From an uncultured Verrucomicrobiota bacterium (lineage in GTDB: Bacteria > Verrucomicrobiota > Kiritimatiellia > CAIQIC01 > Lenti-01), in assembly GCA_964399775.1 (NCBI GenBank), contig CAYNSH010000001.1:56370-120369 (forward strand): 64,000 nucleotides of DNA. The letters are read 5' to 3'. Of the stretch, positions 1 to 64,000 are shown piece by piece. Every line of letters starts with the position of its first letter. Positions within the stretch are counted from its first letter, which is position 1. Both the position numbers and the translations under genes were made by a program. The notes beneath the pieces are model-generated. The model had not been told where the DNA came from. It did not search any database and saw only the letters and a program-made list of their open reading frames with translations.

Positions 1-443
1 CCCTGCGCATGCCGCCGGAAGAGGTCGTCCGGATCGATATGGAGGATTCCTGCCGCCGGGCGATGTGGCGCGACAAGATCGAGCAGATGGCTGCGCATCC
101 GGACGACGACCGGCTCTATCCCTGTGCCGCGGGCCTCAACCAATTTCATGCGGATCCGTTTGGTGGGCTTACGCCCTGCCTGATGGCGACCGCCTTCCGC
201 GACGGGGGGGTGGACCGCCCGTTCCGCGAACGCTGGGAGCGCGGATTGGGCGCCATCCGCGAAGCGCGCCGCACGGGCACCGGCGGCAGCTTTGGCGGCG
301 AAATGCGCGGCGCCTGCACGCATTGCCCGGCCTTCAACCGACTGGAAACCGGCAGCGAGGAAATCGAATCGGAGTACATGCAGCGCACCACCCGCCTGCG
401 CTATGAAGCCGCCATGAGCGGTTCGGATGGAGAAGAGACATGA
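1..443 (+). CDS. Radical SAM/SPASM-domain maturase, C-terminal fragment; the gene continues upstream of the window (ORF track 9..443).
   Basis: The translation carries the SPASM/twitch Cys pattern CAAGLNQFHADPFGGLTPC and a downstream GACTHCPAF, as in PqqE/MftC-like peptide maturases. Its TGA stop overlaps the ATG of the next ORF in an ATGA. Confidence 0.6.
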   Translation, partial: LRMPPEEVVRIDMEDSCRRAMWRDKIEQMAAHPDDDRLYPCAAGLNQFHADPFGGLTPCLMATAFRDGGVDRPFRERWERGLGAIREARRTGTGGSFGGEMRGACTHCPAFNRLETGSEEIESEYMQRTTRLRYEAAMSGSDGEET

Positions 444-625
444 TGCCAGAAGCCCTTCAACGCATCCCGGTCGAGTCCGGGCTGGTCGCCCGGCGCCCTT
501 ACGAGAAGCCGCGGATCACCCGCGTGGACCTGGCCCTGGCCGAAACCCTATCGGAAGGCTGCAAACTGGAGACCAATCCGGGCTGCGTGGGACCGCCCAT
601 CACGGCCTACGAGGGAGGTTCGTGA
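440..625 (+). CDS. 61-aa protein, a candidate modified-peptide (RiPP-like) precursor with a C-terminal Ser (…AYEGGS), in an operon with the rSAM and the kinase.
   Basis: Its ATG overlaps the rSAM stop (acATGAtg), with GGAG 9 nt upstream. Its TGA overlaps the GTG start of the kinase (GTGA). The segment KPRITRVDLALAETLSE resembles the PqqA-type leader recognition motif, and the C-terminal Ser matches known substrates of HprK-like kinases in lasso-peptide clusters. Confidence 0.45.
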   Translation: MMPEALQRIPVESGLVARRPYEKPRITRVDLALAETLSEGCKLETNPGCVGPPITAYEGGS

Positions 626-1662
626 CCGGCAACGGTCATCTGGATATCGGTCCGCTGCGGTTCGCGCTGCGGACCGATCGGTCTGCCCCGGTGCGATATG
701 CCGACCCGGCGTATACGGGATTCTTTTCGACCTCCGGGGAGTTCAATATTCAATATTCAATATTCAATATTCAACATTCAAGGGTCGAGGGGTTGGCGCG
801 CTGGCCCAGCGCGCCGGGATGCGAAGACTTCGACATTCGACATTCGACATTCGACATTCAGCCTTCGAGGGAAGCGGTGGCCTGCGCTCCGCCTCCTGTC
901 CATCCCCTTCTCGAATTACCCGTGGCGATCACCGAAGGCGTTGGCGAAATACCTGCCACTCCGCCGCTGTGGCGCGCGGGGAACCACTGGGCGGTCTGGG
1001 ATGATGGGGCGGAACTGGCTTTCCACGTTGGCCTCGAAGCGCCGGAGGCGGTGCGGGCGTCGTGTCGCGTCGCGAAGAATGTATCGCGGGCGGAGCTGAC
1101 GGTGCATCCGTCGGCCTGGAAGGACGGCATCTGCCAATCGCCGTTGAAATATCCCCTGGACCAGATCTTGAGCTGGGGTCTGCTATCGAAAATCGGCGGG
1201 GCGCTCTTGCATGCGGCGGTGGCGGTGAAGGACGGGGTGGGGATCGTTTTCGCCGGCCGCAGCGGCGCGGGCAAATCGACGCTGGCGGGATTGTGCCATG
1301 CGGCGGGCTGGCGGATTTTGAACGACGACCGGGCGGTGGTGTTCCGTCGTGGCGGCGAATGGCGCGTGGCGGGTACGCCGTGGCACGGATCGGGGCGCTT
1401 TGCCGAAGCGGCCGAGGTGCCGCTGGGCGGCGTGTACCTGTTGAAACAGGCGCGGGAAAACCGGATCGAGCCGCTGGCCGCGGCGCAGGCCCGGCTGGCG
1501 TTGCTGGACGTGGCGGCGGTGCCGTGGTTCGCCGAGGAGTGGTCGCAGGGCATGTTGGACGGGCTGGACCGGCTGGTGCGCGAGGCCAAAGCCGCGCAAT
1601 TCCATTTCACGAAAACGGCGGCGGCGGTCGACGCGCTGGCGGGGGAGGCGGCGTGGACGTGA
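622..1662 (+). CDS. HPr-kinase-related P-loop kinase (HprK C-terminal-domain family, 'HprK-related kinase' type). The N-terminal region contains an in-frame 41-codon repeat element (742-861). An alternative start lies after the element, near GTG 922.
   Basis: Contains GIVFAGRSGAGKSTLAGL…NDDRAVV…GTPWHGSG, the HprK-like Walker A and capping motifs. The GTG at 622 follows a GGAGG and overlaps the upstream stop. The ORF-track version starting at 427 is probably an over-extension. Confidence 0.55.
   Translation: MTGNGHLDIGPLRFALRTDRSAPVRYADPAYTGFFSTSGEFNIQYSIFNIQHSRVEGLARWPSAPGCEDFDIRHSTFDIQPSREAVACAPPPVHPLLELPVAITEGVGEIPATPPLWRAGNHWAVWDDGAELAFHVGLEAPEAVRASCRVAKNVSRAELTVHPSAWKDGICQSPLKYPLDQILSWGLLSKIGGALLHAAVAVKDGVGIVFAGRSGAGKSTLAGLCHAAGWRILNDDRAVVFRRGGEWRVAGTPWHGSGRFAEAAEVPLGGVYLLKQARENRIEPLAAAQARLALLDVAAVPWFAEEWSQGMLDGLDRLVREAKAAQFHFTKTAAAVDALAGEAAWT
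742..861 (+). repeat. Composite repeat element, copy 1. It has (ATTCAAT)n, a GC-rich palindrome GGCGCGCTGGCCCAGCGCGCC, and (ATTCGAC)4. It lies in-frame within the kinase ORF.
   Basis: The tandem heptamers and the central palindrome are visible directly. A near-identical element lies at 1668-1796. Confidence 0.8.
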
Positions 1663-1667
1663 AGAGG

Positions 1668-1796
1668 GAATTCAATATTCAATATTCAATAATCCATCTT
1701 CAATCTTCAATGGGATTGCAAGGTAGGGCGCGCTGGCTCAGCGCGCCGGGATCCAAGAACTTCAACATTCGATATTCGATATTCGACATTCGGCGT
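1668..1796 (+). repeat. Composite repeat element, copy 2, with the same architecture as 742-861. It lies 6 nt downstream of the kinase stop and is followed by CACGAAT-type inverted arms (1815-1890).
   Basis: Reads (ATTCAAT)n … GGCGCGCTGGCTCAGCGCGCC … (ATTCGAY)n. Confidence 0.8.
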
Positions 1797-12305: not shown

Positions 12306-12309
<4 letters not shown>

Positions 12310-13331
12310 GCGCGTCGTCAGGCCTCGTTGCCGTCCTCACCACGATCCAGCCGCCCACGCCGGCCGTGCGCGAACTGCATCGACGGCTGGCGGAATCCGG
12401 CGGCCGCCTCGTCGTGGCTGGCGATCAGAAGGGTCCCGCCGCGTTTGATCTGCCCGATTGCGATTTTCTCAGCCTGGCCGACCAGCAATCCAGCGGGTTC
12501 GCTCTGGCGGAAAAGTTGCCGGTGGGCCACTACGCCCGCAAGAACATCGGCTATCTCCATGCCATCCGCGCCGGCGCGGCGTGCCTCTACGAAACCGACG
12601 ACGACAATGCGCCCCTGCCGGGGTGGGCGCCGCGCACCGAAATTGTGGACCATGCCCGGCGCATTTCCGGTTCGGGTTGGGTGAACGCGTATCGCCACTT
12701 CGCCGAGGATCCGCAAATTTGGCCCCGCGGCTTTCCCTTGGAACAACTGAATTCCATCATTCCATCATTCCATCATTCCATCCTCTCAGCCTCTCCTCTC
12801 CGCGCACCCATCCAGCAGGGGTTGGTCAATGGATCGCCCGACGTGGATGCCGTCTGGCGGCTGACGCAGGACCGCCCGTTTGATTTTGACGAAGCCGCGC
12901 CCCTTTGGCTCGGCCCGGGCCAATGGTGCCCGTTCAATACCCAAAGCACGTGGTGGTGGCCCGCCGCCTATCCGCTACTCTATGTGCCGAGCCACTGCTC
13001 CTTTCGCATGTGCGACATCTGGAAAAGCTTCATCGCCCAGCGCTGCCTGTGGGCCATGGGCTGCGGCGTGGTGTTCCATCCGCCCGAGGTGCTTCAGGAC
13101 CGCAACCCCCACGATTATCTCCGCGATTTCCAGGACGAGGTTCCCGGCTACCTCCAAAATGCACGCATCGCCGAGATTCTCTCCGGCCTGGAACTGGCCG
13201 AAGGCGAGGGGGCCGTGGCGGACAATCTCTTGGCCTGCTACCGAGCCTTGATCCAAGAGACTGTTTTTCCCCCCGAAGAATGGACGCTGGTCAAGGCTTG
13301 GGTGCGGGATGGCTTCACCAGATCACCTTGA
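12306..13331 (+). CDS. DUF288/STELLO-like putative glycosyltransferase-family protein. Carries an in-frame (ATTCCATC)4 repeat insertion (12751-12803).
   Basis: HYARKNIGYLHAIRAGAACLYETDDDN…WWWPAAYPLLYVPS. ATGA overlap with wzt. The internal octamer repeat encodes SIIPSFHHSILSASPL. Confidence 0.45.
12751..12803 (+). repeat. (ATTCCATC)4 plus a CT-rich tract, embedded in-frame in the CDS.
   Basis: Direct tandem octamers seen in sequence, from the same ATTC-core family as the intergenic arrays. Confidence 0.8.
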
Positions 13332-28466: not shown

Positions 28467-28633
28467 AAAACCATGACGATCCGGGGACCTGGCAACCACG
28501 AATGGCACGAATGAACACGAATAGAGAACGGATCCGGGGTTTTACCATTCGTGTAGATTCGAGTGATTCGTGGTTGGCTGTCTTGATAGAAATCCAGTAA
28601 CCACGAATAGCACGAATGAACACGAATAGGAGG
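28466..28633. repeat. Left copy of a ~170-bp repeat flanking the GxxExxY gene. It consists of CACGAAT(A/G)-type heptamer arms in inverted orientation around GAGAACGGATCCGGGGTTTTA.
   Basis: About 95% identical to 29046-29215. The internal inverted repeat AACCACGAAT…/…ATTCGTGGTT is seen directly. Confidence 0.8.
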
Positions 28634-28641
28634 GCATCAAA

Positions 28642-29019
28642 ATGACCGAACTCATCTACAAGGAGGAAGCCTATCAAATTGTCGGAGCCGCAATGGACGT
28701 ATACAACACGATGGGAAACGGGTTTGTTGAGCCGGTTTATCAAGAATGCGTGGAAATCGAACTTGGCCTGCGTGGAATTTCTTTTGAACAGCAGGTTCCC
28801 ATCCCGCTCGACTACAAGAGTCGTCGGCTGAAACAACAATATATTCCGGATTTGACCTGCTTTGGCAGTATCATTGTCGAGCTCAAGGCGGTCAAATCCA
28901 TCGTGGATGAGCATCGCGCCCAGCTTCTTAATTATTTGAAGGCGACCGGGCTGCACCTCGGCATGCTGGTGAACTTTGGGGCCTATCCCAAGCTGGAATG
29001 GGAGCGCATGGTACTTTGA
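28642..29019 (+). CDS. GxxExxY-family protein (small PD-(D/E)xK-like).
   Basis: MTELIYKEEAYQIVGAAMDVYNTMGNGFVEPVYQE…LLNYLKATGLHLGMLVNF matches the family. AGGAGGG lies upstream. Confidence 0.75.
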   Translation: MTELIYKEEAYQIVGAAMDVYNTMGNGFVEPVYQECVEIELGLRGISFEQQVPIPLDYKSRRLKQQYIPDLTCFGSIIVELKAVKSIVDEHRAQLLNYLKATGLHLGMLVNFGAYPKLEWERMVL

Positions 29020-29045: not shown

Positions 29046-29255
29046 GAAAACCATGACGATCCGGAGACTTGGCAACCACGAATAGCACGAATGAACAAGA
29101 ATAGAGAACGGATCCGGGGTTTTACCATTCGTGTAGATTCGAGTGATTCGTGGTTGGCTGTCTTGATAGAAATCCAGTAACCACGAATAGCACGAATGAA
29201 CACGAATAGAGAACGGGTCGGAAGCTTAACATTCGTGTATATTCGAGTTATTCGT
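29046..29255. repeat. Right copy of the flanking repeat, with one extra degenerate unit.
   Basis: A direct repeat of 28466-28633. The GTG that opens ORF 29254 lies inside it. Confidence 0.8.
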
Positions 29256-29274
29256 GGTTAAATCAATCCCAGTG

Positions 29275-46540: not shown

Positions 46541-47251
46541 ATGGAAACGGCTGAAAGCCTGCGGGGGAAGGTGGCGCTGGTGACGGCCGGCGCCCGGCGC
46601 ATCGGGGCGTCCATCTGCCGCGAGCTGGCGGCGCGCGGCGCCAGCGTGGTTGTGCATTACCACCACTCCGAGGGCGAGGCGCTCGCGTTGAACCGCTCGC
46701 TGGGTCGCGGCGTGTTTTCGGTGCGCGGCGACCTGTCCACCGCCCAGGGCTGCGAATGGGTCTTCCACGAAGCCGTCGAATGGATGGGGCGGGTGGATAT
46801 TCTGGTCAACAACGCCTCGCTTTTCGCCCGCGACGGCGAAATGGAGCCGCCGGCCCTGCGCGCCATCAACGTCGAGGCTCCCCTGCACCTCGCGGGGAGG
46901 GTGGCCGCGCAACCGTCCGGCGGATGCGTCATCCATCTGCTCGACAGCCGCATCGCCCGCGCGGAACCAGGCGGTTTCTCCGCCTACGCCGCGACCAAGC
47001 GCGAACTGGCCGAGTCGGTGCCGCGCTGCGCCCGCGAATGGGCCCCGCGCGTCCGCGTCAACGGCGTCGCCCCCGGCCCCGTCCTGGCGCCGGAAGGCGT
47101 CCGCGAACCCGCCGGCGACCTCCCCCTCGGGCGGCGACCCGATCCCGAAGACGTCGCCCGCGCCGTCGCGTTTCTTGCCGAAGCCGGCGCCGTTACCGGT
47201 CAAATCCTGTTTGTCGACGGCGGGCAGCATCTGGGGAATAAGCTGGAATGA
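46541..47251 (+). CDS. SDR-family oxidoreductase.
   Basis: GKVALVTAGARRIGASI (TGxxxGxG-like) and NNAS…YAATK are the catalytic YxxxK elements. Confidence 0.75.
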   Translation: METAESLRGKVALVTAGARRIGASICRELAARGASVVVHYHHSEGEALALNRSLGRGVFSVRGDLSTAQGCEWVFHEAVEWMGRVDILVNNASLFARDGEMEPPALRAINVEAPLHLAGRVAAQPSGGCVIHLLDSRIARAEPGGFSAYAATKRELAESVPRCAREWAPRVRVNGVAPGPVLAPEGVREPAGDLPLGRRPDPEDVARAVAFLAEAGAVTGQILFVDGGQHLGNKLE

Positions 47252-47295
47252 TGGAATGTGGGAATGCTGGAATGTGGGAATGATGGAATAATGGA
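47252..47295. repeat. (TGGAATGN)n tandem array, the GGAAT orientation of the ATTCC family.
   Basis: gatggaatgtgggaatgctggaatgtgggaatgatggaataatgg. Confidence 0.75.
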
Positions 47296-47952: not shown

Positions 47953-47987
47953 GCGCAATCCCGGCGATGAAGGCAGTCGATGAACAT

Positions 47988-48112
47988 TTTCCACGGCGTG
48001 GAAAACAGTTTTCCACAGCGTGGAAAAATCCGCGAACAGTTTTCCATGGCGTGGAAAAAAACGGCGAAAGTTTTCCACGGCGTGGAAAACAGTTTTCCAT
48101 AGCGTGGAAAAC
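47988..48112. repeat. Array of five 19-20-bp palindromes TTTTCCAYRGCGTGGAAAAM (cluster A).
   Basis: Five copies with 2-11 nt spacers. Each resembles two inverted DnaA-box-like 9-mers (TTTTCCACA/G). Confidence 0.85.
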
Positions 48113-53709: not shown

Positions 53710-53840
53710 GGTTCCACGCTATGGAAAACAGTTTTCCACAGTATGGAAAAAAGTGGCGCCGGTTTTCCACGGCATGGAAAATCCGTACGCTTTTTTTCCA
53801 CGGCATGGATCCGGCATCTGCCGGACCACAGCATGGAAAA
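53710..53840. repeat. Array of about five TTTTCCACRGYATGGAAAA palindromes (cluster B), partly degenerate.
   Basis: Same family as 47988-48112. Lies between metH and the activation-domain gene. Confidence 0.8.
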
Positions 53841-53928
53841 CCCGGGACGAGGGCGTCCCGGCTCCAGAACGCGGGACGAGGGCGTCCCGGCTCCAACTGA
53901 CCTCTGAACCCCGACCCCCCAAACCGCC

Positions 53929-62537: not shown

Positions 62538-62648
62538 TTCCATCCCAACATTTTACCATTCCACCATTCCACCATTCCACCATTCCAATATCCCAATATT
62601 CCATCATTCCATTCCTCCAGTATTCCCTCTCCCCATCCCCCCCCCCCC
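62538..62648. repeat. (ATTCCAC)4 / ATTCCAT heptamer array ending in a C12 homopolymer that abuts the exonuclease ATG.
   Basis: ccattccaccattccaccattccaccattccaatatcccaatattccatcattccatt…cccatcccccccccccATG. Confidence 0.8.
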
Positions 62649-63614: not shown

Positions 63615-63947
63615 ATGAAGCGAATACACGGGATGCTCTTGACTCTGGCAATCCTTGGCGCCGTCGGCGTGGCCTTCGCGGCGGTCACCTGCGAAACCGT
63701 CAAAATGAACGACCAAACCTGTGGCGCGCAGATGTGGCAGTGCAACCAGTGCGGCGCGGTCGGCTGCGACGATCTTTCGCGGGAATGCCCCGCCCTGCTC
63801 CAGGATCTCCATGCCGCGGAACGCCAGTGCGTCTATTGCGGCAGCAACGACTGGGCACCCCTCGAAGCGCCCGTCCCCGAAGCCCCGGACCCCGCCGAGT
63901 TGAACGGTTTCCATGGCGTGGAAAATTCCCCCCAAAGTTTTCCATAG
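63615..63947 (+). CDS. Small secreted Cys-rich protein. The C-terminal codons and the stop lie inside palindrome array C.
   Basis: Signal peptide MKRIHGMLLTLAILGAVGVAFA. About 10 Cys. AAGGAA upstream. Confidence 0.4.
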   Translation: MKRIHGMLLTLAILGAVGVAFAAVTCETVKMNDQTCGAQMWQCNQCGAVGCDDLSRECPALLQDLHAAERQCVYCGSNDWAPLEAPVPEAPDPAELNGFHGVENSPQSFP

Positions 63948-64000
63948 CGTGGAAAAATGACGAAAAAGTTTTCCATGGCGTGGAAAACTGCCCTTGGATA
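63907..64000. repeat. Array of three or more TTTTCCATRGCGTGGAAAA palindromes (cluster C), truncated by the window end.
   Basis: Same family as clusters A and B. Confidence 0.8.

Follow-up and report, generated by a model that had tools for sequence, protein, structure and literature searches.

Does a repeat that lies in frame near the beginning of a kinase-like gene belong to the encoded protein, or does it mark a place where the true start was lost? The question arises in a 64-kb stretch of DNA from an uncultured bacterium of the Kiritimatiellia (the whole analysed stretch of 64,000 nucleotides, hereafter the window), where a gene for an HprK-related, ScmC-like P-loop protein contains a composite element made of two heptanucleotide arrays and a hairpin (Table 1). 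The reading favored here, with a probability of roughly 0.8, is that a composite REP-type repeat sits in an insertion-tolerant loop of the protein and is translated from GTG 622 as a disordered extra loop that is tolerated.

Table 1. Features of the kinase-like locus and its two repeat copies, in window coordinates
Feature	Position	Strand	Remarks
Conserved 61-aa ORF upstream of the kinase-like gene	440..625	+	TGA 623-625 overlaps GTG 622 as GTGA
HprK-related / ScmC-like P-loop protein gene	622..1662	+	346 aa; start GTG 622, stop TGA 1660-1662
Composite element copy 1 (array-hairpin-array)	742..861	+	120 nt; encodes residues 41-80
Left heptanucleotide array, TTCAATA x5.7	742..781	+	TRF; 17.5% GC against 65.5% GC for the window; ends in the conserved junction CAAGGG
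REP-like hairpin GGCGCGCTGgccCAGCGCGCC	795..815	+	9-bp perfect stem, 3-nt loop; GTAG tag degenerate, GTTG at 792-795
Right heptanucleotide array, TTCGACA x4.4	829..859	+	TRF; one unit absent in assembly L136
Remainder of the expanded linker	862..921	+	Junction CCTTCGAGGG; weak palindrome at ~870-896 (by eye); in-frame GTG 877
GTG	922..924	+	Displaced-start candidate of the original prediction; codes for an internal, nearly invariant Val; no SD-like motif upstream
Composite element copy 2	~1666..1795	+	Left array 1670-1711, GTAG 1723-1726, hairpin 1727-1747, right array 1767-1792

The original prediction placed a 120-bp repeat in frame inside the kinase-like gene, read through from a GTG coupled to the upstream peptide. 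Sequence and ORF reading agree on this point: the ORF from GTG 622 runs through element copy 1 without a stop. An alternative offered at the same time, that the true start had moved to GTG 922 and the coupling had been broken, is contradicted by the orthologues, which were expected in that case to start at the equivalent of residue ~100. A protein search returned 278 homologues, mostly of ~300 aa with 96-99% query coverage; those that have a taxon label are assigned to Kiritimatiellia or Lentisphaerae. About 100 orthologues, most of them ~300 aa long, align from residue 1. The homologue alignment contains a conserved N-terminal block (GHLDIGPLRFALRT..VRYxDPAYAGFF, residues 5-35), and conservation resumes at PLxELPVDV (about residue 95) and onward. 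The first 40 codons differ from those of the two closest full-length relatives, L003 and L001, by 3/4/14 and 7/7/15 nucleotides at the three codon positions, respectively.

The translational context points the same way. An SD-like GGGAGG precedes GTG 622, whereas a comparable motif is absent before GTG 922. The 4-nt start/stop overlap (GTGA, once ATGA) is kept in L001, L003, L123, L124, L125, L115 and L147, and an upstream ORF of 60-61 aa with the same overlap is called in L001, L003 and L123-L125; the exact 61-aa upstream protein was found in six contigs. In an AlphaFold2 model of the protein (pLDDT 86.4, pTM 0.83), residues 1-40 have a pLDDT of 90-94 and form strands at 2-9 and 12-18, residues 48-88 fall below 50, a disorder that partly reflects the lack of homologous alignment columns there, and the next strand lies at 97-105. 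Since the N-terminus is conserved, substitutions are biased toward third codon positions and the N-terminal strands are confidently modelled, the true start is GTG 622, not GTG 922, and the element lies within the coding sequence.

Pfam PF27840 (ScmC) is precomputed on all homologues, and the P-loop GRSGAGKST is invariant in the alignment. Matches to the NCBIfam models for ScmC, HprK_rel_A and HprK_rel_B are weak: TIGR04249, TIGR04352 and TIGR04355 scored 41.7, 42.1 and 26.6 bits and did not reach their cut-offs of 125, 200 and 200 bits. Foldseek matched the model to PEPCK and HprK/P chains (E 6e-6 to 1e-3, with low TM-scores of 0.2-0.5), and the protein combines a predicted PEPCK/HprK-type fold with the P-loop. 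Judged by these scores, the 346-aa product is a relative and not an equivalog.

Within this protein the element occupies a poorly conserved position. Alignment against orthologous proteins, a check suggested with the original prediction, shows that the inserted residues are absent from most of them: the element falls in a gap in ~17 of 22 aligned sequences, with conserved blocks on both sides, and the variable loop that holds it measures only ~5-20 residues in most aligned orthologues.

Copy 1 consists of two heptanucleotide arrays on either side of a perfect palindrome, GGCGCGCTG-gcc-CAGCGCGCC. The hairpin occurs twice in the window (0.12 occurrences expected in shuffles) and dominates predicted RNA folds. 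None of the three forward frames of copy 1 is closed, although only two had been stated to be open, and every reverse frame is closed; its 120 nt (742-861) correspond to 40 codons rather than the 41 first counted. A gathering-threshold scan of the whole window against Rfam returned no family match. A scan of positions 400-2100 found neither a sigma-70-like promoter nor an intrinsic terminator; since the terminator scan came up empty, the hairpins are not classical U-tailed terminators. Assignment as a MITE was considered and rejected: the arms are direct repeats (TTCAATA and TTCGACA lie on the same strand) without terminal inverted repeats, and no target-site duplication is visible by eye at 735-741 or 862-870.

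The second copy, reported earlier as lying just past the kinase stop, does so: it begins 3-7 nt after TGA 1660-1662, is 86% identical to copy 1, and lies between convergent genes. Only one of its forward frames is open. An array with or without a hairpin also follows the orthologous stop codon in L001, L003, L123, L115 and L147, so that copy 2 and five other lineages share the extragenic 3'-end placement of GTAG REPs. Composite units of array, GGTAG and hairpin are intergenic in L097, L115 and L147; in L097 and L115 tandem units of this kind lie between the gene for a giant SdrD_B/CLIPPER protein and PqqD in the same cluster. More generally, related MAGs repeatedly contain NTYCAAY arrays that end in CAAGGG or CAATGGG and lead into a GC palindrome whose sequence varies (for example, GGCGCGCTGGCCCAGCGCGCC, GGACGGCGCGCCGCGCCGTCC and TTTTCCACGCCATGGAAAA), and the CAAGGG/CAATGGG junction is found at arrays in L001, L003, L018, L070, L097, L115, L146 and L147.

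Searching GTDB genomes for the hairpin gave at least 119 loci. Among the matches listed, GTAG stands directly 5' of the hairpin in 28 of 37 loci from the PVC superphylum and, counted separately, in all 11 found in MAG JAZDKY01; it does so in none of the 68 that come from other phyla. The latter look like chance matches in coding sequence, mostly with a GCG loop. The hairpin is present on at least 7 contigs of MAG RZYG01, at least 11 of JAZDKY01 and at least 3 of JBFXHR01. By its published definition, the GTAG REP superfamily combines a GTAG tag with a GC-rich palindrome, and the PVC superphylum is among the groups in which it has been reported (Di Nocera et al. 2013, PMC3733652). Both hairpins of the window are short GC-rich palindromes of this type, with the tag intact in copy 2 and changed to GTTG in copy 1. 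From its sequence and distribution, the hairpin would belong to a PVC-specific family of GTAG-tagged, REP-like repeats.

Other searches for the element and its possible mobilizing enzyme were negative. Ten small ORFs of the window scanned against Pfam gave no match to a RAYT/Y1 transposase, and a protein search with the 46-aa peptide encoded by the element yielded no candidates. In a metagenome DNA collection, which apparently lacks the source contigs, a gapped pattern of array plus hairpin had no matches, and a pattern of hairpin plus GGGAT matched seven loci, none of them an informative array-bearing copy.

Two classes of dispersed bacterial repeats resemble parts of the element. Enterobacterial BIMEs are REP palindromes arranged in mosaics with other short conserved motifs at operon ends; unlike the element described here, their additional motifs are not tandem heptamer tracts and they are essentially extragenic. 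The STRRs of heterocystous cyanobacteria are dispersed tandem arrays of a 7-nt unit, mostly outside genes, but their unit sequences and phylum differ, and we know of no STRR joined to a GTAG hairpin.

Among the closest known counterparts are the GTAG REPs themselves. They share with the present repeat not only the tagged palindrome and the superphylum but also a mostly extragenic location near 3' ends, between convergent or unidirectional genes, and the occurrence of some in-frame intragenic copies of tens of residues that are argued to form flexible loops (PMC3733652). The verrucomicrobium Opitutus terrae has the largest number of intragenic copies, with encoded segments of 20-30 aa and up to 43-82 aa; some of these insertions, in the authors' suggestion, may be neutral owing to their position in flexible linkers or loops (PMC3733652). 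The families of that study are not described with array flanks, whereas the present hairpin has heptanucleotide arrays on both sides and a CAAGGG junction, and the tag of its intragenic copy is degenerate. Small repeats fused in frame with protein-coding genes, the Rickettsia RPEs among them, have been reviewed (PMC3184786). As summarized in PMC3184786 and PMC3733652, the RPEs (Ogata et al. 2000) are likewise in-frame repeats of 100-150 bp that are translated in intact proteins; they differ in phylum and sequence and are not known to have tandem heptamer arrays. Some RPEs of R. conorii (RPE-4 and RPE-6) are CGTC-tagged (PMC3733652). We did not find a GTAG hairpin between polar heptanucleotide arrays with a CAAGGG junction described in the literature.

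The same loop carries repeat-derived modules in several relatives. L001 (74% protein identity) has only a TTCAATA array at the site, followed by a different GC-rich module, and L003 (69%) has only a TTCGACA array, followed by the same GC-rich module as L001; the start nucleotide of the array is identical in the window, L001 and L003. The window and L003 differ by an indel of 87 nt (29 codons) that comprises the left array and the hairpin (737-823). The loop of L147 (62%) holds three GTAG-tagged modules, two of them direct (GGTAGGGCGAACCGTCCCGGTGAGCC) and one inverted (...GCCTCGCCCTACC). VGRTVPVSRD, the translation of GTAGGGCGAACCGTCCCGGTGAGCCGCGAT from a GTAG-tagged module of that loop, recurs in the loop of several other orthologues. 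All loop modules of L001, L003 and L147 are in frame. The insertion had been described as possibly recent; because relatives at 69-74% protein identity have array modules at exactly the same site, and in frame, it is instead old and has been remodelled by in-frame gain and loss of modules.

Comparison of assemblies revealed one length variant. Over 1.7-4.7 kb, nine further assemblies of this strain (from JGI, ENA and Logan) show no mismatch to the window. One assembly in ten, L136, differs: it has no mismatches and a single 7-nt gap in 2,487 nt, and the gap is exactly one TTCGACA unit. Since the 31-nt array is far shorter than the assembler k-mer (contig names begin with k141), an assembly error that removes precisely one unit seems unlikely. 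The L136 allele is frameshifted and yields a 156-aa product from GTG 622, and automated gene calling instead gives a 261-aa protein that begins at GTG 877, preceded by CGAGGGA, which resembles the native RBS. The arrays are thus demonstrably able to slip. In the same assemblies neither the left array of copy 1 nor copy 2 varies in length; elsewhere in the window, an array at 47244-47295 is unchanged relative to four other assemblies and one at 62540-62611 relative to one other assembly. The array-bearing protein encoded at 12306-13328 has no other member in its cluster and no length variant. Its array at 12751 was considered as a net insertion and rejected, as the loop has the same length in homologues.

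Three other readings bear on these observations. If the insertion had disrupted the N-terminus, the functional protein would begin at GTG 922 or GTG 877, and the 100 codons ahead of it would form a leader that is untranslated or has no meaning. Both positions do hold an in-frame GTG, and gene callers chose downstream starts in some relatives (P0006, P0064, P0092 and P0272), but the 40 N-terminal residues show family-wide conservation, are subject to purifying selection in this frame and are modelled as confident beta-strands, and the strong SD-like motif and the conserved stop/start overlap are both found at 622 and neither is found before 922. Nor do short orthologue calls count as evidence for a downstream start when the DNA is inspected: in L125 the gene stays in frame from an overlapping ATGA, the short call in L124 is explained by a linker G-run that carries a frameshift, and that in L123, the closest relative (84% identity), by an out-of-frame deletion of ~270 nt that removes the whole region. 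Displacement of the start, or pseudogenization, is extremely unlikely for the gene in the window; the kinase-like locus may be decaying in some lineages, such as L123 and L124. A different fate was foreseen in the suggestion that the element had been exapted as a low-complexity linker, and this holds in part. The element does form a variable linker and, from the conservation around it, is very probably translated. For exaptation proper, the encoded peptide (FNIQYSI.../FDIRHST...) would have to have gained a role that selection maintains, such as that of a flexible tether or interaction motif. Repeat-derived peptides do persist at the loop in at least four lineages, and copy 1 is open in three sense frames against one in the intergenic copy 2. 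On the other hand, a heptamer tract with no stop among its seven cyclic triplets is automatically open in all three frames, the peptide is not conserved, module content and sequence differ between lineages while most orthologues manage with the 5-20-residue loop, and the segment is predicted to be disordered. Selected function is accordingly judged very unlikely, and 'tolerated' fits the element better than 'exapted'.

The third reading, that the arrays act as a contingency switch, is compatible with the main explanation. Non-triplet heptamer tracts would gain or lose units by slipped-strand mispairing and the gene would thereby alternate between ON, when in frame, and OFF or N-terminally shortened, when frameshifted. 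The ORF does contain two tracts of a 7-nt unit, as expected of an SSR contingency locus; the loss of one unit is the only difference of L136 in 2,487 nt, the -7 allele offers the 261-aa ORF from GTG 877 with its RBS-like CGAGGGA, and a second gene of the window has an in-frame octamer tract (12751-12782). Heptanucleotide tracts are known phase-variation devices in Haemophilus; at HMW1A of Haemophilus influenzae, in the account of PMC8262952, slippage in a non-triplet tract likewise changes the number of units and alters expression. Relative to the tract as described there, the present ones are much shorter (4-6 units), a single variant allele has been seen, and the organism is an environmental bacterium rather than a host-adapted pathogen. 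The other arrays compared show no length variation, and the loop differences between lineages are in-frame module indels, not changes in unit number. A switch of this kind is therefore unlikely, if less so than the two preceding readings. A broader proposal, which is improbable and should be taken as speculative, would make array-hairpin-array units a distinct, undescribed class of PVC repeats whose sense strand is stop-free in all frames and so able to colonize protein loops. Their heptamer tracts would serve as built-in slippage switches and, in an environmental bacterium that is not a pathogen, confer phase variation on the RiPP-type PqqD/radical-SAM/ScmC cluster and perhaps also on the glycosyltransferase-like gene at 12306-13331.

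For the preferred reading, a translated and tolerated REP-type insertion, the following course of events can be proposed. The element would be a unit of three parts: a polar heptanucleotide array of consensus NTYCAAY with CAAGGG at its end, a palindrome rich in GC that belongs to the PVC-wide GTAG class, and a second array. Its usual home would be intergenic regions and operon boundaries, such as the position after the stop of this gene in six lineages, where the hairpin, by analogy with proposals for REPs, probably acts at the RNA level. One copy probably entered a surface loop of low conservation, which is flanked by the N-terminal beta-hairpin (residues 1-18, together with PAYxGFF) and the strand at 97-105, either by REP-type mobilization or by ectopic copying of the 3' copy. 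Translation from the coupled GTG 622 would then pass through the element and add ~40-46 disordered residues. The protein would continue intact because the sense strand of the arrays is free of stops in any frame, the element is a multiple of three in length and the loop tolerates changes in length. Later changes of modules, such as the 87-nt difference between the window and L003, appear to have come about through in-frame indels, and selection on the downstream P-loop domain would hold such indels in frame. We infer a neutral or tolerated insertion, not a functional one.

These results settle the gene model: the gene starts at the coupled GTG 622 and encodes a 346-aa product, and the stretch beginning FNIQYSI... 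is a repeat-derived loop, not a mis-called start or the mark of a pseudogene. The one-unit deletion allele indicates that arrays of this type can inactivate or shorten their host gene by slippage. In-frame intragenic REPs, known from Rickettsia, Opitutus and proteobacteria, are extended to the Kiritimatiellia, in which one and the same loop of this protein has acquired no fewer than three different repeat modules across lineages and so provides a natural example of an insertion-tolerant site.

A short tandem array also lies inside a second coding sequence of the window, a DUF288/STELLO-like gene of glycosyltransferase type, which carries four copies of an octamer in frame (see table). The array occupies a variable loop bounded by WPRGFPL on one side and PIQQGL on the other. 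Because this loop is equal in length to that of the homologues, the array is a substitute for loop sequence with no net addition. No length variants of the array were found in the protein cluster of this gene.

In the ScmC-like (HprK-related) gene, the entire repeat-bearing loop is missing from the closest orthologue (L123 606-700, JGI 3300078362; 84% identity), in which approximately 270 nucleotides, from LRFALRT to PLWRAG, are deleted out of frame. This deletion marks either a pseudogene or a misassembly. In the window, the 3' junction of the right heptamer array, CCTTCGAGGGAAGCG, is followed by an in-frame GTG at 877 (862-879), an arrangement similar to the native ribosome binding site and start codon of the gene, TACGAGGGAGGTTCGTG at 606-624. 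Judging by this similarity, internal initiation at GTG 877 could occur in the frameshifted allele, which has one TTCGACA unit fewer.

Repeat features of the window and related assemblies (window coordinates unless an assembly is named)
Feature	Position	Location or property
Octamer array (ATTCCATC)x4	12751-12782	Inside gene 12306-13331 (+); in frame, reads NSIIPSFHHSIL
(TGGAATGA)x6.5 array	47244-47295	Between SDR gene and ORF6N gene
(CCATTCCA)x9 array, then C-rich run	62540-62626	Directly upstream of 5'-3' exonuclease gene (ATG 62649)
Palindrome TTTTCCAC-NGC-GTGGAAAA, clusters	47983-48112; 53712-53754; 63908-63987; L133 2680-2850; L146 past window end	
Inverted-repeat elements of CACGAAT / ATTCGTG units	1815-1900; 28490-28630; 29070-29260	
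29-nt GC-rich unit AACCCGGGACGAGGGCGTCCCGGCTCCAG, 2 tandem copies	53839-53895	Unit includes hairpin

Two further arrays lie at gene boundaries. The SDR stop codon (47249-47251) falls within the first unit of the array that follows this gene, which is unchanged in four other assemblies; the array preceding the exonuclease gene is unchanged in one. Inverted-repeat elements of CACGAAT / ATTCGTG units lie on either side of a PD-(D/E)XK (PDDEXK_3) gene (28633-29019), and another adjoins copy 2 of the composite element.

In the window's strain, up to about seven copies of the palindrome stand in tandem in the stretch that separates PqqD from the gene for the giant surface protein. Just beyond the window end, one of its clusters follows a TTCAATA array that carries the CAAGGG junction. 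The palindrome may represent a second family of REP-like repeats or a protein-binding site.

The genes around the ScmC-like gene (window 1-1662, compared with L001, L124, L125 and L133) form a set conserved across Kiritimatiellia and Lentisphaerae, composed of a giant SdrD_B/CLIPPER repeat protein, PqqD, a radical SAM enzyme, a 61-amino-acid ORF that has no family match and no annotation, and the ScmC-like protein. This conserved set resembles a RiPP-type maturation cassette.
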